A stretch of DNA of 64,000 nucleotides from Planctomycetota bacterium (GCA_024276195.1 JAJRXR010000031.1:4473-68472); one strand, 5' to 3'; numbered from the stretch's first letter, positions 33,112-63,052 are shown. Made by a program: numbers and translations. The notes: generated by a model from the letters alone, not told the origin.

Positions 33112-34959
33112 TTACGGGCAGCCAGCGCCGAAGGCGGTTAGGAAGGCGATGACATCGGAGAAGTCGAAGGCGCCGGTTGGCGGCGCGAGATCGGCGGCGG
33201 CCTCTTCACTGCCGAAGGCGGTGAGGAAGCCGAGCACATCGGAGAAGTCAAGGGCGCCGAAGGGCACGGCGAAGTCGGCGACGTTGCACGGCGGGGGCGC
33301 GATGAACTCGACGGCGCCGATGTCGAGCCCGCCGTCGGCGACGCGGGGGAAGCCCACGCCGCGCTGGTCGAACTTGGGCACGCCGCCCATGCCGGCGATG
33401 GCCAGCGGATCGCCCCCATTGATCGCGGGGCTCAGCGGCAGGATCGGGTGCACGAACGTGCCCGCCTGCGCTTCGAGCGAGCCGAGCATCGCGTCGGTGT
33501 TGAGCAGGTCCGTCGCCTCGGGCGTCGCGTCACCTGTCGCGTCGTCGAGCAGGTTGTAGCCGTTGGAGGTGAGAGTGACGGCCCCGGATACCCCGCCAAC
33601 GTTGAAGTTCGGGGCGGCGTTGTCGGCGAAGATCGTGTGGTCGTACCCGATGTTGGTCACGGCGCTCGCCGTCTCGGCTGAATAGAAGACCGCGGCGGTG
33701 CCGGTCTGGTTGCTCGCAAATGTGCAGTGGGAGATCGTGGTTGTGCGCGTTGCAAAGGCGCCACGCGCCCAGATCACGCCGAAGTTCCCCGCATTGCCGC
33801 TGAAGGTGCAGTTGGTGAACGACATCGCGCCGTCCTGCCCATAGATCGTACCCTGACCGTCGCCGTTGTTGATGACGGCACAGTCAGAGAGATTCATGGT
33901 TCCGTTGACAAGTACGATCGCAGCCCCGAGGGCGGGGGCGGTGCGGTTGTTCCGGAGGATGCTTGCATTGATGTTGATCGTATCGTCTCCATCGAACATA
34001 AGCATCGCCCCGCCGTCGTCTGCGCCTGAGTTGCCATCGGCGATGGTGAGATCGTTGAAGGTGTAGGTGTTGGCGCCCGGGCCGCTGAGAGTGAAGATCC
34101 GGCTGACATCGCCGCCGGAGATGGTCAGCTGATCAGCGCCGAGGCCGTTGATGGTGACGGTCTCATCGATGGCGATCTCGCCCTCGGTGAGCGTGATCGT
34201 GCCGCCCGTCAGAGCCGGGTCGAAGCTGATGGTGTCGGCGCCGGGGTTGGCGTTGGCGTTGAAGATCGCCTGACGCAGGCTACCCGGCTGGTCACCCGCC
34301 GCAGCGACTGGGCCGTCGGACGTGTTGGTCACGAGGAAGGGGTCGGCGTACCGGAACGCGAACTCGCCGACTCGGAGAAAGTCACCCCCCCCGTGCCCGG
34401 TCACCACGATGTGGACGAAGCGGGTCGTGACAGGCGGGAACACAAACGATTGGCCAACATTTGTTGCGCTCGGCGTGTATGAGCCAAACAACGCGGTCGT
34501 GCCGTTGGTGAAGTCGTCATCGGTGTCCGCGTGCAGATCGAACGCGGTGATCGCCTCTGTGGAGAAAACTGTGCTCCACATGGCCAGCGCATCGACGGAG
34601 AGGGCGGATCCTAGATCGAACGTGATCGTCTCTCCGAGGTCCACGATGCCATTGGGCTGGTTCAGACCGTTGCTGTTGCAGAGCAGCAGATCCGCGTTGC
34701 TGTTGTTATGCGACGTGGCTGGAACGAACGAATCGAAATCAGTCGTGCCGCTGGTGTAGCTGGCGCTCAGGCCCGACTGGTCGATGGTGTTTCCGACGGG
34801 GAAAAGATCAAACAGCGGAATACAGGAGGTCAAGGCCCCCTGCGGCTGGATGATGGAGCCGGCAGTCTGGGCGTGTGCGGTCGAAGCGATCGCCCCCGCC
34901 GTGAGGACAAGGGCCGCCGACAGAGCGGTATCGATAACTTTGGTGTTCTTGTGATCCAT
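33112..34959 (-). CDS. secreted surface protein: discoidin-like domain, right-handed beta-helix repeats and two C-terminal dockerin-like modules ending in GC
   Basis: Signal peptide (ASTAHAQ). Repetitive G/N/T-rich beta-helix region (TINGLGADQLTISGG.., FTNCTFSGNAGN.., ISHCTFASNQ). C-terminus: CNVADFAVPFGALDFSDVLGFLTAFG...PPTGAFDFSDVIAFLTAFGAGCP. Confidence 0.75.
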   Translation of the reverse strand: MDHKNTKVIDTALSAALVLTAGAIASTAHAQTAGSIIQPQGALTSCIPLFDLFPVGNTIDQSGLSASYTSGTTDFDSFVPATSHNNSNADLLLCNSNGLNQPNGIVDLGETITFDLGSALSVDALAMWSTVFSTEAITAFDLHADTDDDFTNGTTALFGSYTPSATNVGQSFVFPPVTTRFVHIVVTGHGGGDFLRVGEFAFRYADPFLVTNTSDGPVAAAGDQPGSLRQAIFNANANPGADTISFDPALTGGTITLTEGEIAIDETVTINGLGADQLTISGGDVSRIFTLSGPGANTYTFNDLTIADGNSGADDGGAMLMFDGDDTININASILRNNRTAPALGAAIVLVNGTMNLSDCAVINNGDGQGTIYGQDGAMSFTNCTFSGNAGNFGVIWARGAFATRTTTISHCTFASNQTGTAAVFYSAETASAVTNIGYDHTIFADNAAPNFNVGGVSGAVTLTSNGYNLLDDATGDATPEATDLLNTDAMLGSLEAQAGTFVHPILPLSPAINGGDPLAIAGMGGVPKFDQRGVGFPRVADGGLDIGAVEFIAPPPCNVADFAVPFGALDFSDVLGFLTAFGSEEAAADLAPPTGAFDFSDVIAFLTAFGAGCP

Positions 34960-35283: not shown

Positions 35284-35438
35284 GTGTGTATTCTCCTGTC
35301 GCCGGATGAAACGCCCGCCGCAAAGACAGCACGGACTTTGATAGTGCTAGGTAGCAGGCCAGTTCACACTCTGGTTGACTACAGACACCAAAGCTTTTAC
35401 GATGCGCAGCAGCAGAAAAATAGAAAGAAGCTCTCTCC

Positions 35439-35750
35439 ATGCTCATCCTGATCGCGCTTTATACGATCCTCGGGTTTCTCTACGCATGGACCGTTGGCAT
35501 CGTCGCCCGCGAAGAGATATACGTCAGATCAGGCGTGCTGATCGTGGTCATCCCGTTGCTTGTCCGGATCGCCCTCTCGGTCGCTCAAATCCAACTCGGG
35601 CTCATCGGGCTTGGTCTGGATTTCGCGCTGCTCCTCGTTGGATCGAAGCTGATCGCAAGGCTCGACTGGAAGCCCGCGCTCATCGTGTCCGCGATCTATA
35701 CCGCGATCTTACTGGTCGTCTACGTCCTCCTCACGATCGCGTTCTCCTAG
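35439..35750 (+). CDS. small polytopic membrane protein (hypothetical)
   Basis: 103 aa, three or four TM helices, island-type codon usage. Confidence 0.45.
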   Translation: MLILIALYTILGFLYAWTVGIVAREEIYVRSGVLIVVIPLLVRIALSVAQIQLGLIGLGLDFALLLVGSKLIARLDWKPALIVSAIYTAILLVVYVLLTIAFS

Positions 35751-36224
35751 GGCATAGCTACTCGTACCGAACACCCTCATGCTGTGTTCAAGTGGCAGTC
35801 ACGGTACAGGTTTCGTGAATCAGGGCAAAGGCCATCTCGCATGCCCAGTAGTTCAATTCCTGTCACCCCGATCCAACAGGCTCGGCGGCTCGATAAGTGC
35901 CTGAACCATCATGTACTCAGGCAAGTACAATCGCTTCCTGTCGCCACCGGATGACAGCGCAGAGTTTGAAAACTTATGAGTGCGTTTGAAGCCGACGTAG
36001 CTTTCCACAACTTGAGGCTGTCGCTCGGAAGGGGAATAACGACAGCGGCTTGAGTGATTGGGAGCAGAATATGTGACCTCCTCCCCGGCTACACGCCCAA
36101 CTGCGCCCCAACGCACGTCTGACCAGTAGCTTCTCCAAGTACCATGTATAATGACCCTGGCGCTTGCGCAGCATTCACAGCAACGGTAGCATAACCTCGT
36201 AAATCTGCATGGAGACTGACACTC

Positions 36225-39200
36225 ATGGCGCGATCTGAGTGGGCCAAGATTCGAGCATTTGACGGAAGCCAGGAAACGGCATTCGAGGCGTTGTGCAAGC
36301 AACTTGCAGGCTGCGAGTCTTATGCGGCTGATGCAGAGTTCATCCCGAAGGGGAATCCCGACACTGGGATTGAGTGCTTCTGGAAATTGGGCACGGGTGA
36401 GGAGCACGGTTGGCAGGCCAAGTTCTTTCTCGCGTCTCCGCAGGCCAGTCAGTGGCGACAACTCGACGAGTCGGTCAAGTCTGCTCTTGCTAAGCACGCA
36501 CAGCTGCGCCGATACACAGTCTGTTTGCCCATAGATCTGCCCGATGCCCGAGTCCAAGATACACATAGCGCAAGACAGCAATGGGACAAGCACGTTGTCA
36601 AGTGGAAGAGCTGGGCGCGGGGTCACGGACATGACTGTGAGTTCGTGTATTGGGGAGATCATGAGCTGCACAGCCGCCTCATAAATGATCAGCATCGGGG
36701 TCGCTACCGTTACTTCTTCAACAAAGAGATTTTTACAGAAACGTGGTTCGAACAACATCTTGCCGCTCAGATTCAAGCCGCAGGTGCGCGATACACACCG
36801 GAGCTACACATTGATATAGACCTTTCGAAGACCTTTGGTGGAGCAGTACGTGGCCCCTACCTCGCAGACATTTGGTATGGCCATATGAAGGACTTCACAA
36901 AGGCGGCCAAAGATCTTCGATTCTACGATCTGAACAAAAGTCTACGGAGAGAAGGCGAACGGCTCCAAAGCGCCTGTCAAGCATCCCTGGATCGCATGCT
37001 GGCATTGCGCTTGAATATGCCGCACCGTATTAGCGACGCAGGGATCTCGCCTGATTTGGAACTGTTGCACACGCGAATCGACAAACTGGTGGACCGACTG
37101 AGAAGATCGGCCCAGCGGTTCGAGAAGAAGACGACAAAGCCCTACACATCCACTCCATACGAACGCGCCCAGGGATCACTGTGGGGCCTTCACCGCGAGG
37201 TTGATGAGATTCAAAACTTCCTGCAGGGGGAGCTAATCCAGTTGGCTAACGGGCGGCCCCTGTTGATTCGCGGAGATGCGGGAACTGGCAAGACGCACGC
37301 CTTATGTGATTTTGCAGTGCAGCATCGCGAAGTGGCTGGTCACTCCATTATCTGCTTTGGAACCCAGTTTCGAGACGATGCGCTACTGCCGCAAGTTTGC
37401 CGACGCCTTGGGCTAGTGTTTGGAAACTGGGATGAATTCTTTGGGGCACTGTCCGCAGTGGCAGAGTACCACGGTCATCCGGCCGTTCTCTGTCTTGATG
37501 CTTTGAATGAAGCAACCGGCGCTCATGTTTGGGAGCACGAACTACCAGCACTCTTTACGGCATTAAAGAGATACCCGTGGGTTCGACTCTTCCTGTCTGT
37601 TCGGACACCGATGGAGGACCTGTTTGTTCCCGAGCACATCGCGTCGAAGTGTGTTTCGATTCAGCATGCTGGATTCGGCGAGCACTACATCAAGGCCGCA
37701 GCCAAGTTCTTTGATTACTACGATCTGGAAGGACTCCGTGCGCCTCCACTTGTGCCCGAACTCCAGAACCCTCTATTCCTGAAGCTCTACTGCAAGGCAC
37801 ACAAAGGCGCATCAGCCAGTGAGTTGGTTGGAGGCACCCGAAGCCTACAGCGGCTGTTCGATCGCCTTATAGAGCACACGCAGGAAGAGCTGGGAAAGCG
37901 TGGCATCGCTGGCATAGACCCTCGTGGCAATGAAATAGCGAAAGCGTTGGAGCAGATCGCCGAGCGGATGATTGACTCTGGATCCGACCATGTTCCAAGA
38001 GAAGACGCGAAACAGATCGTTGAGGCGAAGACTTCATCTGCTGGCAGGGCTTTCAAGGAGTCACCCTTCGCGTACTTGATTCAAGAGGGCTTGTTGCGCG
38101 AGGTGCCATTCTACGAGCACGGTGAGGATCGCCCGACACAGGCAATCGCCTTCGGGTACCAAAGGTTCACGGACTATTTGCTCGCCGAATGTCTAGTCAA
38201 GAGACATGTGAATCCGACCAAAATCAAGTGTGCTTTCCAGCCTGGGGCTCCGCTCGTGAAGTGGCTATGCGACCAGGCTTCATACTCCCACAGTATTGGT
38301 GTCTACACCATGCTTGCCATCATTACGGCAGAGCGATTTGGCACAGAACTGCCGAGCTTGCTCAGCGATGAGGACAATGCTCGCTTCGATTCGAGGCTGC
38401 ATCTGGAGAGCATTGTCTGGCGCTCCCCTCGTGCTGTTCCGGCCAGTCTGGCCTCGTGGGTCGTCAAGAATGCCCTGCAGGCCGATAGCAATGGCAACTG
38501 CTTCCTGGAGACTCTACTGACGCTTGCTCTCACACCAGATCATCCGCTCAACGCACGAACGCTTCACCAACACTTGATCGTGTTGGAGATGCCAGAAAGA
38601 GATGTGCGATGGACGATGCCAATGCAGCACTCGCAGCGCTGGGGACACGACGGGCCATTCCACACGCTGCTCCACTGGGCCTGGGCGGGCCGCTACAGAA
38701 CACATGAGTACCTGAAGTCTTGTGCGCCCGATGCGGCGGAATTAGGGGCCACGCTTCTGTTTTGGTGTTTCACATTCTCTGACCGCGCCCTTCGGGACTC
38801 AGCGACGAAAGCAGCGGTTGATTTGCTTTCAGTTCACCCAGACCAACTGCCATCACTGATCCACGCGTTCGGCACTGTCGATGACTTGTACGTCAGCGAG
38901 CGAGTCTCGGCAGTGGCGCTCGGAGTGGGCACACGTATCCGTGATCCCGATTTGCTTCTGGAGGTGCTCGATGCGATATACACAGCGTTCTTCAGCAAGC
39001 GTGATCCCCCGGCCAACTACCTATTCCGTGACTATACCAGACGTCTGGTCGAGCTTGCCGCGCGACGGCACAGCAATGTGCCACCGCATCTTCAGCAGAT
39101 GGCCCGGCCCCAACAGGTCTATCTGCGTCGATCACCTGCGTCCCTGGACGAACTCGACCAACGATTCAAGACGTGGTACGACACATCGATTGGATACGTT

Positions 39201-40544
39201 GCTCTTTCTGGCTCTATCAAGCATGGCGATTTCATCCACTACGTTGCGCGATTACCTCACGGGGCTCACAAGCGCCTACGGCGACGGAAAGGAACACGGA
39301 AAGGCATCGATCCTCAACGAATCAACGGACCTGACTTTGTAAAGCGTTGGCTCCTAGAGCGTGTTGCACAACTGGGGTGGACGCCGAAGCGATTCAATCG
39401 CCACGACCAATCGAATCGATCCAACGGTCGAATGACCCACACTAGTGAGCGCATCGGTAAGAAGTACCAGTGGATAGCCTGGCGCGAGCTTGTGGCCCGA
39501 TGCTACGACACATACGAGATAGTGATTGACGAGGACAGCTGGGGAGGGGAGGAATCGGAAGATTCGCTCTGGCTGTTTGCCGCGCGCGCAGACATTGATC
39601 CGACCATTACTGCATATGAATCGGGTTCCGAAGCATGGGGAGATGCTCAGAAGGCTTGGTGGTCTCAAGTCGAGTATGACGCCTGGCTTCCTGATTCTCG
39701 GCGGACGGCATGGCTCAGGCGAATCAACGACATACCCGACACGAAGTCGCTGCTGACTGTGAAACGTCCAGAAACCGGAGCCGACTGGCTGATCGCGTCA
39801 GGATGGTATCGCTGGACCAGAAAGGAAGCCCTGGCGATCACGCCAAAGGAGGAGATCTTCTATCAGATGTTTCTTGGTCTCCGTGGGTATCTCGTGAAAC
39901 GCCGTGACAAAACCAAACTCACAGCGTGGGCACGTCAACAGCGATTCCTTGGCGACTGGATGCCTGGTGGGCATGAAGTAGGGCGATACTCCGGAGCGTA
40001 TCTCGGTGAGTATCCAGAACAGCCCGACGTGGTATGCGCTTGGGCAGAGCCAGGGCCGTCCTTTCGAGGGAGCAATCTGCCATGTGCAATGCTGCCATTG
40101 ACGTGGAGCTATCTCTGTGAACGTGGCTACGACAACTCTATCTGCAAGGCGATCAACCTGGATCTGTTATGTCCTTTCATTGCACGATCCGAAGGCCTTC
40201 AACATTTTTCAGGGGACGGGAGACTCCATACTCCGTCTGGTGAGCTGGTCGCAGAAGACCCCTCGATAGACGCCCTAGGACCAAGCACTCTGGTCATGCA
40301 CCGGGACTGGTTGCAGTCAAGAGTTCTTCGTGACGAATACCTGATTTTCTGGACTGTTATCGGTGAGAAGAACGCAAACAAGATCGGTGGTTCTCGTGAG
40401 TACATCGGGCACCGTGAACTCAACGGATACTACCTGTTCGAAGGTAGCCGGATCACTGGCAAAGTAAGGACGGAGTTTCTAACGCCAGCAATGATGGCCC
40501 AGCGCCACCAGCAAGCCCAAGTCAGTCAAAGCGTGGTCATATGA
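36225..40544 (+). CDS. STAND-class NTPase with N-terminal Mrr-like PD-(D/E)xK nuclease domain and ~900-aa unassigned C-terminal region (Avs/bNACHT-like antiviral candidate)
   Basis: N-terminus: FEALCKQLAG..PDTGIECFWKL..GWQAKFF. Walker A LIRGDAGTGKTHAL, Walker B AVLCLDALNEA, and LFLSVRT. The long uninterrupted ORF uses island codon usage. Confidence 0.7.
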   Translation: MARSEWAKIRAFDGSQETAFEALCKQLAGCESYAADAEFIPKGNPDTGIECFWKLGTGEEHGWQAKFFLASPQASQWRQLDESVKSALAKHAQLRRYTVCLPIDLPDARVQDTHSARQQWDKHVVKWKSWARGHGHDCEFVYWGDHELHSRLINDQHRGRYRYFFNKEIFTETWFEQHLAAQIQAAGARYTPELHIDIDLSKTFGGAVRGPYLADIWYGHMKDFTKAAKDLRFYDLNKSLRREGERLQSACQASLDRMLALRLNMPHRISDAGISPDLELLHTRIDKLVDRLRRSAQRFEKKTTKPYTSTPYERAQGSLWGLHREVDEIQNFLQGELIQLANGRPLLIRGDAGTGKTHALCDFAVQHREVAGHSIICFGTQFRDDALLPQVCRRLGLVFGNWDEFFGALSAVAEYHGHPAVLCLDALNEATGAHVWEHELPALFTALKRYPWVRLFLSVRTPMEDLFVPEHIASKCVSIQHAGFGEHYIKAAAKFFDYYDLEGLRAPPLVPELQNPLFLKLYCKAHKGASASELVGGTRSLQRLFDRLIEHTQEELGKRGIAGIDPRGNEIAKALEQIAERMIDSGSDHVPREDAKQIVEAKTSSAGRAFKESPFAYLIQEGLLREVPFYEHGEDRPTQAIAFGYQRFTDYLLAECLVKRHVNPTKIKCAFQPGAPLVKWLCDQASYSHSIGVYTMLAIITAERFGTELPSLLSDEDNARFDSRLHLESIVWRSPRAVPASLASWVVKNALQADSNGNCFLETLLTLALTPDHPLNARTLHQHLIVLEMPERDVRWTMPMQHSQRWGHDGPFHTLLHWAWAGRYRTHEYLKSCAPDAAELGATLLFWCFTFSDRALRDSATKAAVDLLSVHPDQLPSLIHAFGTVDDLYVSERVSAVALGVGTRIRDPDLLLEVLDAIYTAFFSKRDPPANYLFRDYTRRLVELAARRHSNVPPHLQQMARPQQVYLRRSPASLDELDQRFKTWYDTSIGYVALSGSIKHGDFIHYVARLPHGAHKRLRRRKGTRKGIDPQRINGPDFVKRWLLERVAQLGWTPKRFNRHDQSNRSNGRMTHTSERIGKKYQWIAWRELVARCYDTYEIVIDEDSWGGEESEDSLWLFAARADIDPTITAYESGSEAWGDAQKAWWSQVEYDAWLPDSRRTAWLRRINDIPDTKSLLTVKRPETGADWLIASGWYRWTRKEALAITPKEEIFYQMFLGLRGYLVKRRDKTKLTAWARQQRFLGDWMPGGHEVGRYSGAYLGEYPEQPDVVCAWAEPGPSFRGSNLPCAMLPLTWSYLCERGYDNSICKAINLDLLCPFIARSEGLQHFSGDGRLHTPSGELVAEDPSIDALGPSTLVMHRDWLQSRVLRDEYLIFWTVIGEKNANKIGGSREYIGHRELNGYYLFEGSRITGKVRTEFLTPAMMAQRHQQAQVSQSVVI

Positions 40545-40623
40545 TTCTTTGGCATTTCTCGCGCACACTACCTGACCTGCATTCCCAGATGCGTCCATCC
40601 CGCTGCATTGTCGCATAGCAGGT

Positions 40624-40682
40624 GGACGGGTTTCGGGGGGCAGGTCACCCCGGCCTATCCCCTCGAAACCCGTCCAGTTTTG
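40624..40682 (+). terminator. strong hairpin between the STAND gene and the SIR2 gene
   Basis: 17-nt arms ggacgggtttcgggggg / cccctcgaaacccgtcc (one mismatch), 18-nt loop, then agttttg. Confidence 0.5.
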
Positions 40683-40776: not shown

Positions 40777-41811
40777 ATGCGAATGCCCAGTGACACCGAC
40801 TTCATCAAAGAACTTGAACAAAGGGTTGTGCAGCAGCTCAAATCGCAGCGCGTAGGTTATCTTCTTGGTGCAGGCTCTTCCTATCTGGACGGCAATGGGT
40901 ATCCGCTTGCGTTTCAACTCTGGGGCCGCATCAAGGACAAGATCACGGACCTGACGAAACGGGATGACATTCAGGCCAAGCTCGATGGCGGGGCGAACGG
41001 GATCGAACACGCCTTGGACTTGTTGGATGATGGCAGCGCGACGGACACGCCCTATCGCCACTTGGTCACCACCGCGATAGCGGAAGATTTCATGCCGATG
41101 AATCCCCCGCTCGATACACACGCTGCGTTCGTCGGGCGGATCGCCCTGCGGACTGACCCGTGTGTCAAGGTGTTCAGCCTCAACTACGACCCGCTCATTG
41201 AGCGGGCCGCTGAGATCGCTAAGTGCCGTCTCGTCGATGGCTTCATCGGCCACGAGCACGCATACTTCAATCCTGCCGTGTTCACCGAAACGCTCTTGCT
41301 GAGTCGTGGACCGCGTGCCAGGCCTTCGCTGAGCCCAGCGGGCACTCCGATCCACCTTTACAAACTGCATGGGTCAATGGGTTGGTATGACTGCCCGACG
41401 CGAGGCGTACGGCGGTGCGCCTTTGGCGGCGCGTTGCCATCGGGAGTGGTCCGGCTGATGATCCCCCCGCAGCGGCGAAAGGTCTCCGAGGTAGTCCGGC
41501 CAGCGTACTCGCCGATTTGGACGGCCTTTCGCGGAGCGATGAGTCATGATGCAAAGCCGCTGATGCGACTCGTTGCCGCCGGATACGGGTTCTTGGACGA
41601 GCACGTTAATGACGTAATTGACTCAGCCTTGGAGCGCCCGGACTTCCGGCTTCTGATTTTTGCCAGGGCGCTGTCAGACTCTGCCTGGGCACGTTGGAGT
41701 GCTAAGGCGAACACGCTCGTCATCACGGAGAATCGTTGCGCGATTGAGAGCACAACGGGACCCGGTCACGCGGACCTTTGGAAGTTCGAACAACTTGCTA
41801 TCAAGGTGTAG
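40777..41811 (+). CDS. SIR2-like (SIR2_2-type) NADase-domain protein
   Basis: YLLGAGSSY (GAGxS), FSLNYDPLIE (N..D) and LYKLHGSMGW motifs in SIR2 order. Confidence 0.8.
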   Translation: MRMPSDTDFIKELEQRVVQQLKSQRVGYLLGAGSSYLDGNGYPLAFQLWGRIKDKITDLTKRDDIQAKLDGGANGIEHALDLLDDGSATDTPYRHLVTTAIAEDFMPMNPPLDTHAAFVGRIALRTDPCVKVFSLNYDPLIERAAEIAKCRLVDGFIGHEHAYFNPAVFTETLLLSRGPRARPSLSPAGTPIHLYKLHGSMGWYDCPTRGVRRCAFGGALPSGVVRLMIPPQRRKVSEVVRPAYSPIWTAFRGAMSHDAKPLMRLVAAGYGFLDEHVNDVIDSALERPDFRLLIFARALSDSAWARWSAKANTLVITENRCAIESTTGPGHADLWKFEQLAIKV

Positions 41812-41814: not shown

Positions 41815-43506
41815 ATGCCTACTGCCAACGAATCCGTCATTGGACACATTGTGGACGTACAAGGCGGCCTGCTTACCGCAACGCTTGCCGAGGACGAGCA
41901 GGGCGCGTCGCCCGTCGTCACGATTGCGGGCGAAGACATCTTGGTTGGGCAGATAGGCTCTTACGTCGCCATAAGACAGCACGACATCAACATCATCGCG
42001 ATCGTGACACGCATGACCGAGCAGGAGGCCCTTCTCGGTGCCTCAATTGAGACTCCGACAGGTGAGAAAGCGAGATTGCCATTCGCCAAGCGGATGGCGC
42101 GGCTCACACCGATCGGGTCCATCGACCCAGACGGTCAATTCACCCGTGGAGTTGGGCGGTACCCGACCACGGGTGCCGAAGTCCACGCGATCGGCACAGC
42201 GGACATCGCCAAGATGTTTGAGCGATACCAGTCGAAGGGTTTCTCGGTCGGGACCGTGGCGACACATCCGTCGCTCAAGGTTTGCCTCGACCCGTCGAAC
42301 CTGTTCGGGCGACACTTTGCCATTCTCGGACAAACGGGGTCGGGCAAGTCGTGGACCGTCGCCTCTTTGGTGCAACGCACGGTCGCGGTCATGCCCCGCG
42401 CCCACATCATCATCCTGGATTTGCACGGGGAGTATTGCTGGAAGCGTGAGGATGGCAGTCGCCACTACGCATTCGCGGACAAGATCGTCCGCCATGTGGA
42501 TGCGAGAGAGTTGGAGATTCCGTATTGGCTGATGACCTACGCGGAGCTGTGCGATTTGCTGATCGAACACAGCGAGCGGGAAGCCACCAATCAGACTGCA
42601 TTCTTCCGCGACTCTCTGTTTGAAGGTCGTCAGAAAGAAAACACCACGGCCATGCCCCCACTTGGACTCTCTCGGGTCACGGTGGATACCCCAATTTATT
42701 TTTCGTTGGACGAATTGATCGCCAAGGTCAAAGCCAAGAATATTGAGCGGGTTGGCAATCGGCAGGGTCCGATGTTCGGAAACTTTGATCGCTTCCTCAT
42801 GCGGATCGAAAGCAAGCTGAATGACTCGCGATATGACTTCTTGCTGAAGCCGCAAAAACGAAACACCTCGGCGTCGCTCTCCGTCATGCTGCGCGACTTC
42901 GTCGGGCTTGGCACTCAAAAAGCGGCGGTTACTGTAATTGACCTTTCCTCAGTACCGTTCGACGTTCGTCCTACCGTAGCGGCGCAGATCGGTCGCTTGG
43001 CGTTCGAATTCAACTATTGGAACCCCAAGTACCGGGAGTTTCCCATCCTGCTCATATGCGAGGAGGCCCATGCGTACATCCCGCGTGCCGCCGAGAGCCA
43101 GTTTGCTGGCGCGAGGAAGTCGATGGAGCGCATCGCCAAGGAAGGGCGCAAATATGGCGTCGGGCTTGCTGTGGTTAGCCAGAGACCGCACGAGGTATCC
43201 GAAACGGTGCTCGCGCAGTGCGGCACATTCATCTGTCTGCGGATCACGAACCCCAACGATCAAGCCTATGTCCGCAGTCTCGTTCCCGAGAGCGAAGGTG
43301 ACTTGATCAGCGTGCTCGCGGGCTTGGGCCGGGGTGAAGCGCTGGTATTAGGCGAGGCCGTCCCGCTCCCGACTCGGTTGCAGTTCGACAAGCCGAACCC
43401 CTCCCCCAATAGCGATGACGTGGACTTTTACAATATGTGGAAAACCGGCCCAACGGACCTTGACGTAGATGCGATCGTGAAGCGGTGGCGAAGTCAGGAG
43501 CGTTGA
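41815..43506 (+). CDS. HerA-type (DUF87/FtsK-HerA superfamily) ATPase
   Basis: The ATG is 3 nt after the SIR2 stop. N-terminal HAS-barrel-like segment (VIGHIVDVQGG..VGQIGSYVAI), Walker A ILGQTGSGKS, Walker B ILLICEEAHAYIP, VVSQRP..V....QCGTFICLRITN. Confidence 0.85.
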   Translation: MPTANESVIGHIVDVQGGLLTATLAEDEQGASPVVTIAGEDILVGQIGSYVAIRQHDINIIAIVTRMTEQEALLGASIETPTGEKARLPFAKRMARLTPIGSIDPDGQFTRGVGRYPTTGAEVHAIGTADIAKMFERYQSKGFSVGTVATHPSLKVCLDPSNLFGRHFAILGQTGSGKSWTVASLVQRTVAVMPRAHIIILDLHGEYCWKREDGSRHYAFADKIVRHVDARELEIPYWLMTYAELCDLLIEHSEREATNQTAFFRDSLFEGRQKENTTAMPPLGLSRVTVDTPIYFSLDELIAKVKAKNIERVGNRQGPMFGNFDRFLMRIESKLNDSRYDFLLKPQKRNTSASLSVMLRDFVGLGTQKAAVTVIDLSSVPFDVRPTVAAQIGRLAFEFNYWNPKYREFPILLICEEAHAYIPRAAESQFAGARKSMERIAKEGRKYGVGLAVVSQRPHEVSETVLAQCGTFICLRITNPNDQAYVRSLVPESEGDLISVLAGLGRGEALVLGEAVPLPTRLQFDKPNPSPNSDDVDFYNMWKTGPTDLDVDAIVKRWRSQER

Positions 43507-43591: not shown

Positions 43592-43855
43592 CTAGGGTCG
43601 TTTGGGTCGCTTCGGGCGCCTCATGAGGTATTGGTCCAGTGCCTCACCCGGTGAGATACCGCACGCCTCCGCCCACCGACAGAACTCACCCACATCGACC
43701 CTCCGGCTCCCCGACTCGGAAGTCGAGATCGACTGCTGCACCCTCAGCAGCTTCTCGGCCAGCTCACGCTGCGTGAGGCCCGCCTCCTCCCGCATCTGCC
43801 GGAGCAGATCCGGGATCGGCGCGTAGTCGCGGTGGTGGACGGCCCGTGCTCCCAT
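43592..43855 (-). CDS. XRE-family helix-turn-helix regulator
   Basis: LRQMREEAGLTQRELAEKLLRVQQSISTSESGSRRV matches the Cro/CI-type HTH. Confidence 0.8.
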   Translation of the reverse strand: MGARAVHHRDYAPIPDLLRQMREEAGLTQRELAEKLLRVQQSISTSESGSRRVDVGEFCRWAEACGISPGEALDQYLMRRPKRPKRP

Positions 43856-44738: not shown

Positions 44739-45206
44739 CTAGCTCCTCGGCGTCTGCTTGAGCGCCAGCAGCAGGAAGTCCGCGATCGCGTCCTCGTACT
44801 GCGCCATGGCCATCCGGTCGCCGTAGGACGGCCGGTCCATCCTCGGCGCCTTGCCCGTGAGATCCGCCAGCTCGTCCTGCGAGCGGATCGCCAGCGCCCA
44901 CAGCGCCCGCGTCACCTCACTCCCCATGACCGTCGTGCCCAGGTACGACGACAGCGTGCGCGCAAACCGCTCGACCTCATCCGCCTCGCTCCGAGTGAAC
45001 CTCGCCTTGATGTGGACCCCCTGCTCCCGCTTCCTCGCGGATCGCCCCCGTCCAGCGCTGCGCGGCGGAGCCGGATCCCCTGCCCCGCCCTTCGGCGGTG
45101 TTCGTTCTCGGTCGCTCTGAGACGGCCTCTCCACCGGTCCAACGATCGCGGCCACCTGGTCCTTGAGCAGCGGGTTGACGGTCGGTCTGTCACGCCGCCT
45201 TGCCAT
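44739..45206 (-). CDS. putative ribbon-helix-helix centromere-binding partner of ParA (ParG/ParB-like)
   Basis: Overlaps the parA 3' end by 17 nt. A basic disordered N-terminus is followed by VHIKARFTRSEADEVERFARTL, an RHH-like beta-strand plus helix. Confidence 0.4.
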   Translation of the reverse strand: MARRRDRPTVNPLLKDQVAAIVGPVERPSQSDRERTPPKGGAGDPAPPRSAGRGRSARKREQGVHIKARFTRSEADEVERFARTLSSYLGTTVMGSEVTRALWALAIRSQDELADLTGKAPRMDRPSYGDRMAMAQYEDAIADFLLLALKQTPRS

Positions 45207-55200: not shown

Positions 55201-57350
55201 GAGGAATGACGCCCCGGGTTCGGTACGTCATCGGCGAGGACGTTCGGCTCGAACTCATCCGCGGCGCCGATCGCATCGAGACGCCTGGGGTGTACGCGGG
55301 CCTCGACCGGTACGGGCGCATCATCAACCAGATGTGGGTCAACAACAACTTTACGAACGCGACCAATCCGGCGGACCCGCTGGTGTCGCGGGCGTACGCC
55401 TATGACCGCACCTCGAATCGATTGCTCGACTACGACAACCGTCCGAACCCGGCCTTCCCTGATCGTGACTGGTGGTACGACTACGACGAGCTGGACCGTC
55501 TGAAGACCGCGTACCGGGGTGAGTTCACGGGAACGGAAACAGACCGCGATGGCTGGGCTGGTCTCAACCAGGCGACGCGCGAGACCAAGTGGTCGCTGGA
55601 GCCTGGCTCCGAGGCGTGGGATCTGGACATCCTTGGCAACTGGGACGAGTTTGACCGGGACCAGGACGACACGGCGTTCCCGCTGGGCTTCGGGCCGGAC
55701 AACGGCGAAGAGGAGATCCGCACCCACAACATGGCCAACGAGCTGACGACCTTCCAGCCGCAGACCTCGCCGAGCACTCAATCATCGGCGCATCACTTCG
55801 ATGAGTCTGGGAACCTGCGTCGTGAGCTACGGGCGGGGACAACCAGCGGCTACAAGTACACCTACGACGCCTGGAACCGCTTGGTGAAGATCGAGTACCA
55901 GAGCCCGACAGAGCTGAACACGATCGGCGAGTACGAGTACAACGGTCTGGGATGGCGGACGATCCGCCGGTACGACACGACCAAGGGGAGTTACGACGGC
56001 GTGAACGAGGAACGCCGGTACTTCTACTCTGCGGGATGGCAGGTGCTCGAAGAGCACATCGACGAGGACGGGACGGGCGCCTCGCTGAACGCGGGGGACC
56101 CTGCGGACATCGACCGGCGCGCCCAGCAGGTCTGGGGGACACGGTACATCGACGACGCGGTAGCGCGCCGCGTGGATACGGACGGCGACGGCGTGGAGTT
56201 CGAATCGCTGTATCGGTACCTGATCGATGCGCTCTTCAGCGTGCGCGGCATCGTGGACGACTCGGGGTCGGTGATCGAGTACCTGGACTACACGCCGTAC
56301 GGGGAGGACGCTGCGGGGGAGACGGTGCACCGGTACGCGGGTGATCTGGACGGGGATTCGGTGCTGACGGTGGCGGACCTGGTGCTGCTGCAAACAGCGA
56401 TCACAAACAGCGTGTACATCGCCGACGCGGACCTGACGCACGACGGGTCACTGGATTTCTCGGACATCGTGGAGATGAGCGGTCGGATCAGCGCGGGGTA
56501 CGATCTGGCGATGCCGGGGAACTGGGTGGGTGACCCCGAGCGAGCGTCGGTGGCGAGCGACAACTCGGTGGGGTACGCCGGGTACTGGGGGGATCTGGAG
56601 GCGGGGTTGTACTGTGTGCGATTCAGGCATTACTCACCGGGGCTGGGGCGGTGGATGCAGAGGGATCCAGACGGGTATGGCTCTGGGATGGGTTTATATG
56701 TCTATGCGTTGTCGTCGCCCGCTGTCTACCTTGACCCTGACGGCCTTTCGCCTGTATTCTTGGTTGCGCCAGCCGAAGCCGCTGCCAATTATCTGATTAA
56801 TCAATTCTATACAGAGGCTGTTCCACGAATTTCGCAAGCAGCGGTAGCAGCGGCTGCATTTAAGAACAAAGCGTGCTCGCTGCTTTCAAGCGTCACTAGC
56901 ATACCTGGTTATGGATGTATTACTTTGATTGTCTTTGCCGGAGATGAGTTCCTGAGTCCTCCGGGATTAGAGGCATTGGATGCGGCACTAAACTATGTAA
57001 CTGCACTCGAACTTGCATGCCAAGGCAAACTTGGAAAAGCGGGATTCTTCGCGGCATTGTCGGTAGTTGATGCTACGATTGCGCCCTATGGTGGGAAGCT
57101 CGGGGGTGCCGTTGCGGGCTTCTTTACAGGTGGCCCTGTGGGTGCCGTCATAGGTCAAAAAGCAGGCGAGGTACTGCTGGAGACGGCCGTCTGGGGTCTC
57201 CAGAACGCCATTTCGCAAGGGAGTGTATTGCCTACGCAACAGTTGTGTGATTGTATGAATGTACTAAACATGCTTGGGGCGTCGCCAGCCACGCCTCCGG
57301 TCGGTCCCTCGCAGCCAACATTAACGGATCCAGCCTTGCTCGGAAGATAG
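52269..57350 (+). CDS. RHS/YD-repeat polymorphic toxin: shell, RHS core and variable C-terminal tip
   Basis: Many YDxxGR(L/V) repeats (YDARGRL, YDDLGRL, YDGLGRR, YDDAGRL, FDERGRV...). RHS core ends at RFRHYSPGLGRWMQRDPDGYGSGMGLYVYALSSPAVYLDPDGL. Confidence 0.9.
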   Translation: MGVSEGLSGAIVRTTQYERVDTTRPDLITKSTQLSDNDTVRSAGFDFHDAAKFRPSVVTRRIDGDKASHNGPGVGSTTEVVTYELYDARGRLRWAKLADGVNEYREYEPFTGRLIKVVSNAASGDQSAGEPAPTTSNFPGLPGSLTWARPAGTFPMVREMEYDDLGRLIASTNTAGVTRYAKREVRWADTAIPTVTRGVPHMARTSLPHKLASGSNTYDGPAQITWLDAAGRSIRQSEYLLSGTPWQPVNGPEPSYALGAEVARTTAGISIAGIVESAKVWHDVLGDDSYETQFEYDGLGRRTKTTDPLGGEARQVYDIRDRVVAIYSSRGSGNGPERLVADFTYDSDQDATQGVGNSNLTFERWYVDEAGTQTRTNKRWYDFRDRLIGVENPEAPHQTFTYDDQNRVIAQASWTSSWGAGTPYTPAVGVASISTYRESSYSHRGLLYEERIAIDPTSGSTSFLETNRWYDDRGRQIALWAPNGPATKTTYDPHSRVNFARVTDRKDDVVPGVAGNHADAVDVSTDFIIEQVRYNYEVEAGIDTGLLELVSVYQRRHDFSGLGKLDSGTASDKAFQTYTGMAYDDAGRLTETLNFGTNTASNVFDSSGSAPTAPYDTDRGTNLVALIESVEFDERGRVIASIDPEGSRTETKYDDLSRRVAVIEAASGAVDPDTDITWNSTDGRWSVGWSATPPSDTDRITSFAYDGLSNVVKRVAHVSDGTTADKVQETEYVYGTTTPATPSGDLDSHISSSRLLAKVRYPDETTGDASDSGAYSVIYAYNMQGELIGMQDQMATTHVYERDGFGRVVHDRVTSTDNTLTYTVDTTVMRISASYDGHGNLSAVRSYDNDAVGSGTVQNAVGFGYTPLHQIGEVRQHPEGDVTSDPWPTLPEAAVDYTYSNKSILSGAVTGNHSRVETIRYPSDQTATTDPTLHITYAPNGVGDRISRVSKLEEITDEPTPGVYTLGDTYVAYSYAGRGMTPRVRYVIGEDVRLELIRGADRIETPGVYAGLDRYGRIINQMWVNNNFTNATNPADPLVSRAYAYDRTSNRLLDYDNRPNPAFPDRDWWYDYDELDRLKTAYRGEFTGTETDRDGWAGLNQATRETKWSLEPGSEAWDLDILGNWDEFDRDQDDTAFPLGFGPDNGEEEIRTHNMANELTTFQPQTSPSTQSSAHHFDESGNLRRELRAGTTSGYKYTYDAWNRLVKIEYQSPTELNTIGEYEYNGLGWRTIRRYDTTKGSYDGVNEERRYFYSAGWQVLEEHIDEDGTGASLNAGDPADIDRRAQQVWGTRYIDDAVARRVDTDGDGVEFESLYRYLIDALFSVRGIVDDSGSVIEYLDYTPYGEDAAGETVHRYAGDLDGDSVLTVADLVLLQTAITNSVYIADADLTHDGSLDFSDIVEMSGRISAGYDLAMPGNWVGDPERASVASDNSVGYAGYWGDLEAGLYCVRFRHYSPGLGRWMQRDPDGYGSGMGLYVYALSSPAVYLDPDGLSPVFLVAPAEAAANYLINQFYTEAVPRISQAAVAAAAFKNKACSLLSSVTSIPGYGCITLIVFAGDEFLSPPGLEALDAALNYVTALELACQGKLGKAGFFAALSVVDATIAPYGGKLGGAVAGFFTGGPVGAVIGQKAGEVLLETAVWGLQNAISQGSVLPTQQLCDCMNVLNMLGASPATPPVGPSQPTLTDPALLGR

Positions 57351-57372
57351 AGTTTGCTACAGTTCCTCTAGA

Positions 57373-57465
57373 ATGAATATGAAAATTATTCATGGCGTAG
57401 TAGTTGTTGCAATTGAAAAAGAAAATCAGAAGATTGATTTACTTAACAAGGAGTTGTCTGTGTGA
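57373..57465 (+). CDS. tiny A/T-rich ORF downstream of the RHS tip (30 aa)
   Basis: MNMKIIHGVVVVAIEKENQKIDLLNKELSV. Below the ORF-track size cut-off; read by hand. Confidence 0.25.
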   Translation: MNMKIIHGVVVVAIEKENQKIDLLNKELSV

Positions 57466-57617
57466 AACACGAGCGCGAGACACGCGGCGGCGGTGGCGAT
57501 CGATTGTATTGGTTTAAAGAGGATCGGCCAGTTCTTGTTCGACTTATATGGGCACTTATCGCGATTGCTTTATTGACCATTGTTCTGACGGTTGCGACTT
57601 TGCTTGCATTGATTTGA
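57462..57617 (+). CDS. small single-TM protein, candidate RHS immunity factor (51 aa)
   Basis: The GTG overlaps the previous stop (GTGTGA). VKHERETRGGGGDRLYWFKEDRPVLVRLIWALIAIALLTIVLTVATLLALI has one strong TM helix. Confidence 0.35.
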   Translation: MKHERETRGGGGDRLYWFKEDRPVLVRLIWALIAIALLTIVLTVATLLALI

Positions 57618-57797
57618 ATGTGAATGGCGTGGGATCCAAATATTCAGCCGCGTGCAAGTGCGATGCGACACCGGGAAAAACCCGTGGGCGCTCGGCAATG
57701 AGAGGGGCCAAGTGATGGTTCGGTGAACCGGACGTAGACCGATGGCGCATGGTCGCGTTTCAATCAGCTCGGTTTGGCGAACAAGAAAAGCTGCCCA

Positions 57798-57950
57798 GGC
57801 GGCGCGACGGTAGGAGCGGAACAGCCCCCCGAGACGCTCATCGCATTGAACGGTGCCCGCTGCCTTGGGCGATTCTTCAGATGACTCGAGCGGGACATTG
57901 CCCACGCCCTGGTGAGAGCGCTCGTGAACAGCGGATTCCAGTCGTAGATC
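57798..57950 (-). pseudogene. C-terminal remnant of an rve-type (DDE integrase core) transposase
   Basis: Minus-strand frame reads ..HERSHQGVGNVPLE....AGTVQCDERLGGLFRSYRRAA. This matches the ..ERPHQGLGN......RLGGLL..YYR.A ending of IS481/IS3-like transposases. No upstream catalytic core is present. Confidence 0.45.
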
Positions 57951-58038
57951 AGGATGCGGTGGGCTACCTGTCGGTTGTGTCAACCGGACACCCATTCAGC
58001 GAGTATGTGAGCCTCGGCAAGGACGGAGGCTACCGCGC

Positions 58039-60225
58039 ATGGGCTGCAAAGGATTGCTGCCAGTCCCCTTGGTGTTGATCGCGGCATGTTTGGCGTTGAG
58101 CACGCCTCGCAGCGCCGCTGTCCAGCCAGCCGGTGATGAGCCAGCCGCACACGTCGTCCTCAATGGTCGAGTCCCGCTGTCTCGCCTTGTCGATCTTGCG
58201 GCTGCGCAGCTCGGGCTGTCCGTGTCGTACGACGTCCAGGCGCTCCGGGCAGAGGTGACGATCCGTGTGGACGAGGGCATCTCGGGCGATGAGTTGTGGC
58301 GGCTGGTCAACGAGCAGCTCCAAGCCCACAACCTCACGACGATCCGATCAGATGATCGTGACACATTGGCGGTGGCGCCGCTCTCGGAGGCCAAGGACCG
58401 GGCCAGGATCGAGCTTGGAGACGCGCCCCAAGTTGAGGCGGGATTCCAGCGTGTGCTGCTAACGCCCCAGTCCACGGGCGCCGAGGAGATCGAGGGTCCG
58501 CTGCGAAAGCTGATCTCGCGGGCTGGATCGATTGAGCGTCTGGATCAGCGAACACTCTTGGTCAGTGATCTGACGCCGCGTCTCCGCCAGATCCGTGTGT
58601 TGCTGGGGCGGCTCGATTCCGCATCAGAGACCTCGGCCTCTCGCACACTCAAGCTCGAACATCTCGCCCCGGAGCGGGCGATCGCGTTGGTCACGCAGGT
58701 CGCCGCCAAGCGAAAGCTCGTTGGCGGACCTGACACTCCGGGCGAGTTTGTGGCGTTGCCCGATGGGAAGTCGGTGCTTGTCATTGCCCCTGAGCGTGGG
58801 CTGGACGGCTGGGAGACGCTGATCAGGGCGTTGGATCAGCTCGAGCCCGTCGAGACGCGGCACTACTCGCCGTCACACTTTGCTCTGGCGGAGACTGCGG
58901 GCCTCATTGAAGAAACGGTCAGAGGCTCCAGCTCATCCGATGGCCGCTGGCGGCTGGTTCAGGATCAACTGACGGGTTCGCTGGTCATCACGGCGACACC
59001 ATCCGACCATGAGCGCGTCCAGGCCGTGCTTGATCGGCTGGCAGCGGCTCCTGTTGAGTCTCAACGCCCGGTGCGGTCGTTTGTGGTGCGGAATCGATCG
59101 GTGACGGAGGTCGTTGAAGTGCTTCGCGGACTTATTGATGCGGGCGTGCTGGAGGCGGGCGCGTTCGAGCGTGATGACGCGGTGCGCGCCGCCGGCGCCC
59201 AGCAGAGCAGCCAAGCGGCTTCTGATCAGGCTGGACGACTCAATCAGCCGCGTCGATCGGAACAGGGGCTCAGCGAGCGTCGGGGGCCGGAGGGTATCGA
59301 TCTCTCGCTCACAGCGGACGAGGGGACGAACACGCTCATCGCTGTGGGGCACGTTCGCTTGCTGGATCAGTTGGAGGGGCTCCTCAAGATTATTGATGTC
59401 CGGCAGCCACAGGTGGTGCTTGAGGTGCTGCTCGTGTCACTGACTGACGGGCAGACGCAGGATCTGGGTGTGGAGCTCGCGGCGCTGATCAACGAGGCCG
59501 GGACAAGATTTGCGTTGGCGTCGCTCTTCGGGCTCAGCTCGGTCTTGCCATCTGATGCGGCGGCGATGCCCGGGAGCGGATCTGGAGGCACCGCGGTGGT
59601 GCTCGACCCGGGCAACTTCAGCGCTGTTATCCGTGCCCTTGAGACGGTCAATGGCGGGCGTTCGCTCTCGATCCCCCGGATCCTGGTCAACAACAACGAG
59701 AGCGGCGAGTTCAACTCGGTGGTGCAGGAGCCGTTTGCGAGCACGAACGCTTCGAATACGGTGGCGACGACGAGCTTTGGCGGTACGCAGGATGCGGGGA
59801 CGACCATCTCGATCCGGCCGCAGATCGCCGCAGGCGATTTCCTGGTCCTCGAGTACTCCGTGTCATTGAGTTCGTTCACGGGTGAGTCGGCGGATCCTTC
59901 GTTGCCGCCGCCTCGCCAGCAGAACAACCTGTCGAGCGTGGCCACCATCCCGGACGGGTACACGATCGCGGTGGGGGGGATCGAGCTGACCACCGAGGCC
60001 GAGGCGGTGAGCAAAGTGCCGCTGCTCGGTGATCTTCCAGGGATCGGAGCTTTGTTCCGGAGTACGTCGATCTCATCGAGCCAGTCCCGGTTCTATGTGT
60101 TCATCCGAGCGTCGGTCATGCGGCATCATGACTTTCTGGATCTGAAGTATGTGAGCGATCAGGAGATCCTTCAGGCCGGGGTAGACGATGGCTGGCCCGA
60201 GGTGGCGCCGAGGATCATCAAGTGA
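58039..60225 (+). CDS. gspD: type II secretion system secretin
   Basis: Signal peptide, N-domains, secretin domain ending VPLLGDLPGIGALFRS...FYVFIRA. Confidence 0.9.
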   Translation: MGCKGLLPVPLVLIAACLALSTPRSAAVQPAGDEPAAHVVLNGRVPLSRLVDLAAAQLGLSVSYDVQALRAEVTIRVDEGISGDELWRLVNEQLQAHNLTTIRSDDRDTLAVAPLSEAKDRARIELGDAPQVEAGFQRVLLTPQSTGAEEIEGPLRKLISRAGSIERLDQRTLLVSDLTPRLRQIRVLLGRLDSASETSASRTLKLEHLAPERAIALVTQVAAKRKLVGGPDTPGEFVALPDGKSVLVIAPERGLDGWETLIRALDQLEPVETRHYSPSHFALAETAGLIEETVRGSSSSDGRWRLVQDQLTGSLVITATPSDHERVQAVLDRLAAAPVESQRPVRSFVVRNRSVTEVVEVLRGLIDAGVLEAGAFERDDAVRAAGAQQSSQAASDQAGRLNQPRRSEQGLSERRGPEGIDLSLTADEGTNTLIAVGHVRLLDQLEGLLKIIDVRQPQVVLEVLLVSLTDGQTQDLGVELAALINEAGTRFALASLFGLSSVLPSDAAAMPGSGSGGTAVVLDPGNFSAVIRALETVNGGRSLSIPRILVNNNESGEFNSVVQEPFASTNASNTVATTSFGGTQDAGTTISIRPQIAAGDFLVLEYSVSLSSFTGESADPSLPPPRQQNNLSSVATIPDGYTIAVGGIELTTEAEAVSKVPLLGDLPGIGALFRSTSISSSQSRFYVFIRASVMRHHDFLDLKYVSDQEILQAGVDDGWPEVAPRIIK

Positions 60226-61790: not shown

Positions 61791-63052
61791 TGGTCTGGCG
61801 GTATGTTGCTGTGCCGCTGGAGCCCTCTGCCGGCGGGACCCGGCAGGCGGGCGAGCTTGCCGGCGCTTCCGCAGCGGATGTGAGGGCCTCGCTCCGCAGG
61901 GCCGGTCTTCAGGTGCTCGATGTCCGACCGATCCGCAGAGGACATACGCCGGGCCAGATTTCGGGCTGGCTTGTTCCGGTTCAGGCGACAGCCAACCGCC
62001 ACCTGCGCTCGAGGCGCCGCCCGCTTGTTGGCGAGATCTACGACTCACTGGCGACCATGCTGGACGCGGGTGTACCGCTGCTCGGCGCTGTCGAGTCGGT
62101 CACGGGCCGTCCCTCACGGCGCGCCAGGGGGCGTCGCCGGATGCTTCTAGAGGTCCGCGAGTCGCTGTCTGCGGGTGGCTCACTCTCGGAGGCCATGAAA
62201 TCGCAGCCCGCGTGGTTTGACGCGGCCGAGATCGCCATGGTCGCCGCCGGGCAGCATTCGGGCGACCTGTCCGGTGTTCTGCGGTCGCTCGCAACAAAGC
62301 ACGGGCGTGCGAGCCAGCTCACCTCCAAGATCGCCTCGGCGCTCTCGTACCCGCTGATTGTGCTGCTCGTCGGGCTCGGTGTGGTCGCGTTCCTGAGCAC
62401 GAAGACGCTGCCCGAGTTGACGGGCATCCTCACGGATGCCGGGATTCAGGCGCCGAGGCTGACAAGCATCGTCATGGGCGCAGGCCAAGGTCTCGTCAGG
62501 TTCAGCCCGATGCTCGTGATGGCCGGTATTTTCCTGGCCGCAGTCGTTCTGCTCGCCGGTCCGATTGCGCGGTCTCGAGGGTTGAAGACGCCGTCCTGGC
62601 CAGCTTGGCTCACGCCCGGGGTGATGCGTCAGGTCATGGTTGCCCAGGCGATGGGCGGGCTCGCCGCGATGGCGCGCGTTGGCGTCCCGATCACCGAGTG
62701 CCTGCGCGTCTTGGCGCCGACCATCCCGGGGCTGGGGTCCGCAGCTCTGCGCCGCCTGCTGCTCGATGCCGCCGATCGCATCGAACGTGGCGGCTCAATT
62801 GCGGGTTCGCTCGACGATGAAATCTGGTTTGATGACGAGATGCGCCGATTGATCGAGATCGGGGAGGCCAGCGGCGAGTTGCCCGAGATTCTTGAGAGGC
62901 TCGCCGAGCGGCAGGAGCGGTCCGCTCACCGGGCGATCGATCGGTTCGTGACTCTGCTCGAACCCGCGATGATCCTGATGCTCGCCGTGCTTGTCGGCCT
63001 TGTCGTCATGGCCGCGATTCTCCCGCTGATCCGGCTCCAGGAGGTGGTTTAG
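61787..63052 (+). CDS. gspF: type II secretion inner-membrane platform protein
   Basis: Two GspF-type repeats and three TM segments. Start overlaps the gspE stop (ATGA). Confidence 0.9.
   Translation: MMVWRYVAVPLEPSAGGTRQAGELAGASAADVRASLRRAGLQVLDVRPIRRGHTPGQISGWLVPVQATANRHLRSRRRPLVGEIYDSLATMLDAGVPLLGAVESVTGRPSRRARGRRRMLLEVRESLSAGGSLSEAMKSQPAWFDAAEIAMVAAGQHSGDLSGVLRSLATKHGRASQLTSKIASALSYPLIVLLVGLGVVAFLSTKTLPELTGILTDAGIQAPRLTSIVMGAGQGLVRFSPMLVMAGIFLAAVVLLAGPIARSRGLKTPSWPAWLTPGVMRQVMVAQAMGGLAAMARVGVPITECLRVLAPTIPGLGSAALRRLLLDAADRIERGGSIAGSLDDEIWFDDEMRRLIEIGEASGELPEILERLAERQERSAHRAIDRFVTLLEPAMILMLAVLVGLVVMAAILPLIRLQEVV

Follow-up and report, generated by a model that had tools for sequence, protein, structure and literature searches.

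The protein of 1,439 amino acids encoded on the plus strand of a 64,000-nucleotide stretch of DNA from a Planctomycetota bacterium (GCA_024276195.1 JAJRXR010000031.1:4473-68472; the whole stretch is called the window here) is almost certainly a divergent new member of Avs2, an established family of anti-phage proteins with solved structures. Considered as a whole, it is very probably a stand-alone Avs2 that carries an Mrr-like nuclease and would be triggered by phage terminase, by homology to EcAvs2, KpAvs2 and VcAvs2. The domain order is Mrr-like PD-(D/E)xK DNA nuclease, helical extension, STAND ATPase, TPR sensor and beta-rich C-terminal sensor (Table 1). This is the commonest Avs2 type, with an Mrr-type effector; according to published work, most Avs2 proteins bear such an effector. 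A preliminary description of this DNA had recognised the nuclease and the nucleoside triphosphatase (NTPase), and had regarded the C-terminal ~900 residues as unassignable and as a possible new specificity class.

Assignment of the protein to Avs2

To place the protein, profile libraries, solved structures and 5.8 billion protein clusters were searched. All six PADLOC Avs2 models match it, with E-values from 0 to 1e-135 and the best score for PDLC02164 (1137 bits). PDLC02162 aligns nearly over its full length (residues 5-1414 onto profile positions 4-1370 of 1379), and PDLC02164 spans residues 4-1010 plus 1037-1420. If the protein is divided into four separate fragments (residues 1-190, 191-700, 701-1010 and 1011-1439), each of them matches PADLOC Avs2 models; residues 701-1010 alone and residues 1011-1439 alone are both recognised by all six, at up to 1.6e-72 and 2.3e-82, respectively. 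The sole real match among solved structures is 9o4e_A, annotated as AVAST type 2 anti-phage system protein Avs2 (E = 1.2e-115), with alignment blocks of residues 171-1007 (285 bits) and 1040-1418 (101 bits). This entry shows the complex of EcAvs2 with the large terminase of PhiV-1 (Evans et al. 2026, PMC13601566). The C-terminal sensor aligns with residues 1102-1482 of 9o4e at E = 3.2e-29, and the nearest relatives that have names are called Avs2.

The fragment-wise PADLOC matches and the 9o4e alignment bear out the Avs-type antiviral architecture of effector, STAND module and sensor which had been proposed before. The new specificity class had to be given up, since typed Avs2 sensors (PDLC02162, PDLC02164, 9O4E) align with the whole length of the C-terminal half, which is what the preliminary description itself had named beforehand as speaking against it. 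The vaguely HEAT-like helices it pointed out are real, among them the helix beginning ALRDSATKAAV at residues 855-882, but together with the terminal ~450 residues they represent the Avs2 TPR domain and C-terminal sensor, so that a family can be assigned to both. The reported richness in tryptophan towards the C-terminus was found again, with 10 Trp in residues 1101-1200. In Pfam only AAA_16 and NACHT appear, both sub-threshold and at residues 339-475, and both ends of the protein were left without a match in the Pfam scan, which is probably the reason why it could not be assigned earlier; the defence-specific libraries resolved the family.

The single open reading frame (ORF) of 1,439 codons in an island of low G+C was confirmed, with a G+C content of 0.52-0.57 compared to 0.66-0.72 for most of the upstream 32 kb. 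Its G+C pattern by codon position is that of coding sequence, and a GGAG ribosome-binding site lies at 36211-36214, 10 nucleotides 5' of the ATG. The peptides quoted earlier for the nuclease, Walker A, Walker B, LFLSVRT and the helix are all where they had been placed.

The N-terminal domain is common to all 110 homologues found and is their best-conserved part (~50% identity). In alignments of 35 and 70 sequences D46, G48, E50, Q64 and K66 are invariant, and E21 occurs in 69/70; these residues lie in the motifs FEALCKQLAG (20-29), PDTGIECFWKL (45-55) and GWQAKFF (62-68). A single-sequence search of this domain against the PDB gave no match. A profile of 35 sequences was needed, which detects the N-terminus of EcAvs4 (8dgf_A 2-97, E = 2.8e-4) with matching positions of the elements FE, G-I-E and W-Q-x-K. 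For residues 1-170, the AF2 model (pLDDT 93.4, pTM 0.85) has an alpha-beta-beta-beta-alpha-beta core (H16-29, E38-41, E51-54, E60-65, H74-90, E94-100) and the layout of a PD-(D/E)xK nuclease, with an acidic residue on helix 1, an Asp before strand 2 and (E/Q)xK on strand 3. The top Foldseek match of the model is again 8dgf_A (E = 4.2e-4, probability 1.0), and the weaker matches EcoO109I, Card1, EndoMS/NucS, FokI and Can2 are all PD-(D/E)xK nucleases. The Mrr-type nuclease of the preliminary description thus stands: profile, model and invariant residues support a predicted Mrr-like PD-(D/E)xK nuclease that is nearest to the effector of EcAvs4, which has been termed Mrr (10.64898/2026.08.25.746987). 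Residues 1-170 are left uncovered by 9o4e because EcAvs2 bears a different effector, rare and uncharacterised, in place of the Mrr nuclease.

In the ATPase, Walker A (LIRGDAGTGKTHAL) occupies residues 347-360, Walker B (AVLCLDALNEA) residues 420-430 and LFLSVRT residues 455-461. K356, within the GTGKT of Walker A, and D425 of Walker B are invariant in 70/70 homologues. K356 aligns with K348 of EcAvs2 in the 9o4e alignment, and the K348A mutant of EcAvs2 has lost defence (PMC13601566). The helical extension in front of the ATPase contributes to the terminase interface in EcAvs2 (PMC13601566), and the equivalent helical bundle of KpAvs2 binds Avap2 (PMC11564622).

For the sensor, nine published contact residues of EcAvs2 were mapped via pairwise alignments to 9o4e. 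Five of them are kept, namely D981 (D1002 here, conserved in 57/70 homologues), R1132 (R1069, 52/70), E1362 (E1299, 39/70), E1444 (E1381, 48/70) and E1462 (E1398, 22/70). The motifs found family-wide, GDF, GR...ERIGKKYQWIA, RDIDP and GEK, are all present. An AF2 model of residues 985-1439, based on a 16-sequence alignment, reached a pLDDT of 75.4, and its only significant Foldseek matches were the chains of the SeAvs3-terminase complex 8dgc_A/B (E about 6e-6, probability 1.0); the PDB library used is older than the release of 9O4E, so that the model could match SeAvs3 only. This is in agreement with the published observation that Avs2 and Avs3 have the C-terminal sensor in common (PMC13601566). 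The structure prediction of the C-terminal half therefore leads to the fold of the SeAvs3 terminase sensor and not to a new class.

The linker between GDF and ERIGKKYQW comprises 74 residues here, compared to ~157 in EcAvs2. The window protein falls into a short-linker class (12/69 homologues, linker of ~75 residues, median protein length 1,419 amino acids), which is the form modelled by PDLC02162. The other 57/69 homologues have a linker of ~168 residues and a median length of 1,520 amino acids.

Proposed mechanism and relation to characterised Avs proteins

Characterised Avs2 members sense phage terminase, and the infected cell dies. Terminase is sensed by all Avs2 tested so far, across effector types and highly divergent terminases, and tetramers form on it in the case of EcAvs2 and VcAvs2 (PMC13601566; 10.64898/2026.08.25.746987). 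By analogy we consider it likely that terminase is also the trigger of the window Avs2. In the uninfected cell the protein would be an inactive monomer. Upon infection by a tailed phage the large terminase would dock with its ATPase domain in the pocket formed by the TPR and C-terminal sensor, or a structural mimic would do so in its place, and the ATP-bound STAND modules would tetramerise. The tetramer could gather the four N-terminal nuclease domains and so activate them, and non-specific degradation of double-stranded DNA would abort the infection, the cell being killed or arrested. The window protein and its family contribute to this proposal the domain homologies to Avs2 and Avs4 prototypes, the intact nuclease and Walker residues and the stand-alone genomic behaviour. 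We infer the trigger, the oligomeric state and the degradation of DNA from EcAvs2, VcAvs2 and KpAvs2.

The likeness to KpAvs2 (Bechon et al. 2024, PMC11564622) covers the Mrr-family endonuclease, the STAND NTPase and the Avs2 C-terminal sensor. The nuclease lysine is K71 in KpAvs2 and K66 here, the Walker A lysine K337 and K356. KpAvs2 degrades DNA non-specifically in abortive infection, and both the K71A and the K337A mutant lose defence (PMC11564622). It differs in its three-gene operon with Avap1 (radical SAM) and the required Avap2 (DUF6375), neither of which stands beside the window protein or its homologues. EcAvs2 is homologous in helical extension, ATPase, TPR and C-terminal sensor over window residues 171-1418; apart from its effector it differs in a linker between TPR and C-terminal sensor that is about 85 residues longer. 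VcAvs2-trypsin-MBL shares the Avs2 sensor and ATPase and forms a terminase-triggered VcAvs2 tetramer; there a trypsin-like protease activates a separate MBL nuclease, whereas the nuclease of the window protein is fused directly (10.64898/2026.08.25.746987). EcAvs4 (PDB 8DGF) provides the closest solved relative of the effector with its Mrr-like N-terminal nuclease; its sensor recognises portal protein and is unrelated to that of Avs2, and it has a Ser at the position of D46. SeAvs3 (PDB 8DGC) shares the beta-rich C-terminal terminase sensor but has a Cap4-type nuclease, another TPR architecture and an elongated tetramer (PMC13601566).

To describe the neighbourhood of the family, 527 candidate stretches were collected from a species-representative genome set, and the best 80 loci were used for the counts. 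The relatives span many bacterial phyla as well as archaea. No neighbour is conserved across the 80 loci, and the largest cluster of flanking genes occurs in 7/80. Recurrent neighbours are type I and type IIG restriction-modification (R-M) genes, DISARM DrmMI, HEC-01A/AriA-like ATPases and a PglX-like (BREX-like) methyltransferase, which identifies the homologue loci as defence islands. The family thus has the behaviour of a defence gene that stands alone and spreads horizontally, as published for Avs2. Neither the radical-SAM family of Avap1 (PF04055) nor DUF6375 of Avap2 (PF19902) was matched in the flanking ORFs of the window Avs2; about 5% of Avs2 are accompanied by these accessory genes (PMC11564622).

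Alternative explanations and the neighbouring SIR2-HerA genes

Several observations weigh against a terminase-triggered, stand-alone Avs2. The NCBIfam Avs2 equivalog NF041813 scores 782 bits (E = 1.3e-234), under its curated cut-off of 1000, the closest relative among the protein clusters is no more than 34% identical, and the public record, in which this very protein lies on a 74-kb contig, leaves it unnamed. The sub-cut-off score and the low identity account for the missing annotation and do not make a new kind of system. On the effector no Pfam nuclease family, Mrr_cat included, was found at E <= 1, and its model resembles the EcAvs4 fold to a moderate degree (TMq 0.54). Avap2, on which KpAvs2 depends, was not found here, and autonomy is assumed by analogy to other Avs2 proteins. 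Four of the nine EcAvs2 contacts are changed, with T1128 replaced by R1065, R1130 by N1067 and E1364 by G1301 and the W1266 loop deleted, so that the bridging-ATP mode of terminase recognition may differ.

These changes are also what could be expected if an Avs2-fold sensor had drifted to another trigger or binding mode, i.e. a non-terminase phage protein, or terminase without bridging ATP, and thus formed a new specificity class within Avs2. Altered trigger recognition might follow from the low identity to all relatives, the membership in the minority short-linker class, the replacement of 3/5 bridging-ATP ligands of EcAvs2 and the loss of the W1266 loop. Moreover, KpAvs2 recognises the non-terminase proteins Ksap1/Ksap2, which indicates that unrelated proteins, too, can fit into an Avs2 pocket (PMC11564622). 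On the other hand, single alanine mutants of the bridging-ATP ligands spare the defence of EcAvs2, where terminase is recognised redundantly and by its shape (PMC13601566), and the ligand differences are therefore no strong case for another trigger, yet leave the possibility. The equivalents of T1128, R1130 and E1364 are variable across the subfamily of 70 homologues. As the family-wide motifs are retained and every Avs2 tested senses terminase, we regard a drifted trigger as unlikely. Still less can be said for a decaying or inactive relic. The lack of close relatives, the foreign composition and the fact that no conserved promoter was detected directly upstream of Avs2 would fit such a relic. 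It is opposed by an uninterrupted ORF of 4.3 kb with a ribosome-binding site and codon-position G+C of the coding type, by the preservation of all invariant nuclease and Walker residues, and by an N-terminus that aligns with the homologues from residue ~4 on, and we consider it very improbable.

A further question is posed by the SIR2 and HerA genes, which follow Avs2 on the same strand after a gap of 232 nucleotides and within one islet of low G+C. This arrangement would be compatible with a single three-gene system, in which for example Avs2 senses and SIR2-HerA serves as second effector. SIR2-HerA is known to work autonomously. Using tblastn and phmmer, no SIR2 or HerA relative was found in any of the 80 homologue loci, 64 of which offer at least 3 kb downstream. 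Relatives of the window HerA at 85-91% identity number in the hundreds, on contigs assigned to Burkholderiales, Thermoleophilia, Phycisphaerae, Acidiferrobacter, Panacagrimonas and others. With 34% for the best relative of Avs2, this difference implies that the genes were not inherited together. In five long contigs with close HerA relatives (L081-L085; 87-88% identical) SIR2 (342 amino acids) and HerA (563 amino acids) stand behind other genes, namely type I R-M, an M78 peptidase with helix-turn-helix (HTH) or CTD10/MC6 genes, often with an integrase near, and Avs2 was found in 0/5 of them. The G+C content at third codon positions is 0.60 for Avs2, 0.70 for SIR2, 0.71 for HerA and 0.82-0.84 for flanking host genes, and the contrast between the units suggests two separate acquisitions.

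The region between the two units contains the strong hairpin which had been taken earlier as an argument for separate transcription. Its arms of 18 nucleotides (40623-40640 and 40659-40676) are 94% complementary, it folds with -56.1 kcal/mol (z = -5.1), and 0/200 shuffles fold as well. A simple terminator scan missed it because the T-run has only 4 nucleotides and the loop is longer than 8. This hairpin suggests that Avs2 and SIR2-HerA are transcribed separately, as had been argued. From the absent co-occurrence, the contrast in identity, the codon composition and the hairpin it follows that the adjacency is a co-location in a defence island. Avs2 itself works autonomously (PMC13601566), and one joint system of three genes is hardly credible. 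The fixed position beside SIR2-HerA of the preliminary description does not exist; the placement is a coincidence, and SIR2-HerA is an independent cassette. Defence genes that lie side by side in an islet are no proof of functional coupling.

The SIR2-HerA cassette deserves some remarks of its own. It is remarkably uniform across unrelated phyla and often near integrases, implying a very recent and wide horizontal spread. Directly 3' of HerA, L082-L084 contain a conserved ORF of 243 amino acids that has no Pfam match. An XRE/HTH_31 regulator (43592-43855, minus strand) lies directly downstream of the window HerA on the opposite strand and could be a regulator that belongs with the cassette; L081 has an HTH_3 gene (11196-11522, minus strand) in a similar place after HerA. 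L085 carries a CTD10, MC6 and CTD10-DUF2326 trio (3315-6183) upstream of SIR2-HerA and next to type I R-M; these domains come from predicted conflict systems, and this locus is another dense defence island.

Genomic context and significance

Avs2 and SIR2-HerA lie together in a small defence islet whose composition is foreign to the Planctomycetota (Phycisphaerae-like) genome around it, and the named relatives of the GspE encoded in the window all belong to Planctomycetota/Phycisphaerales. Defence content is limited to about 36-43.9 kb, i.e. Avs2, SIR2-HerA and the XRE-type gene; the larger downstream ORFs at 46.7-63 kb were screened and contained none. No tRNA gene occurs in the 64-kb window, no meaningful flanking direct repeats were seen at the islet borders, and the flanking ORFs scanned include no integrase. 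The features are listed in Table 1.

Table 1. Position of the Avs2 gene, its domains and the adjacent features, counted from the first letter of the window
Feature	Position	Strand	Remarks
Whole Avs2 gene	36225..40544	+	Uninterrupted ATG-started ORF, 1,439 codons plus stop
Mrr-like PD-(D/E)xK nuclease effector (predicted), residues 1-170	36225..36734	+	Candidate catalytic E21, D46, E50, Q64, K66
Helical extension between effector and ATPase, residues ~171-335 (approximate boundaries)	36735..37229	+	EcAvs2 alignment from residue 166 on
STAND NTPase module, residues ~336-700 (approximate boundaries)	37230..38324	+	Walker A G350-T357 with K356; Walker B ending D425
Alpha-helical TPR-type sensor region, residues ~701-1007	38325..39245	+	Contains helix 855-882 and GDF motif (D1002)
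Beta-rich C-terminal sensor of the type common to Avs2/Avs3, residues 1040-1439	39342..40544	+	Trp/Tyr-rich; ERIGKKYQWIA motif
Terminator-like hairpin 3' of Avs2	40623..40676	+	18-bp G+C-rich stem, then AGTTTTG
SIR2 gene of the separate neighbouring SIR2-HerA defence system	40777..41811	+	Pfam SIR2_2; PADLOC SIR2 PDLC04081 at 7e-31
HerA gene of the neighbouring SIR2-HerA system	41815..43506	+	PADLOC HerA PDLC04105 at 2.4e-154, full length

In the 1.2-kb gap upstream of Avs2 there is a very hydrophobic ORF of 103 amino acids (35439-35750, plus strand), probably a small membrane protein; it has no Pfam match and no counterpart beside the Avs2 homologues. It is overlapped by an ORF of 147 amino acids (35375-35818), which was considered as accessory gene and rejected as not coding, being Arg-rich, with 0.39 G+C at third codon positions and no homologues. 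Further upstream, a protein of 615 amino acids (33112-34959, minus strand) has a signal-peptide-like N-terminus and weak matches to F5/8 type C and right-handed beta-helix families. It ends in two C-terminal repeats (FDFSDV..FLTAFG), which we take to resemble the dockerin-type repeats of Planctomycetota surface proteins.

Downstream of the islet a ParA/AAA_31-type ATPase (45190-46434, minus strand) is followed, within 49866-63052 on the plus strand, by an ORF of 797 amino acids that has no family match and an RHS-repeat protein of 1,693 amino acids (52269-57350, plus strand), neither of which matches PADLOC. A type II secretion block (58039-63052, plus strand) with secretin, GspE and GspF likewise has no PADLOC match. 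The GC skew is negative from 1 to ~32 kb, near zero at 32-48 kb and positive beyond 48 kb, and the minimum of the cumulative skew falls around the islet.

The significance of the assignment lies mainly in annotation, as a protein left unnamed in public is an Avs2 with the commonest effector. With it the Avs2 family reaches into Phycisphaerae-like Planctomycetota, in a form of very low sequence identity. A sequence as divergent as this one could help to map the truly constrained positions of the sensor, since GDF, GR...ERIGKKYQWIA, RDIDP and GEK survive in it and most of the bridging-ATP ligands do not. If recognition turned out to be altered, including that of a non-terminase protein of Planctomycetota phages, Avs2 would gain a new subclass of specificity.

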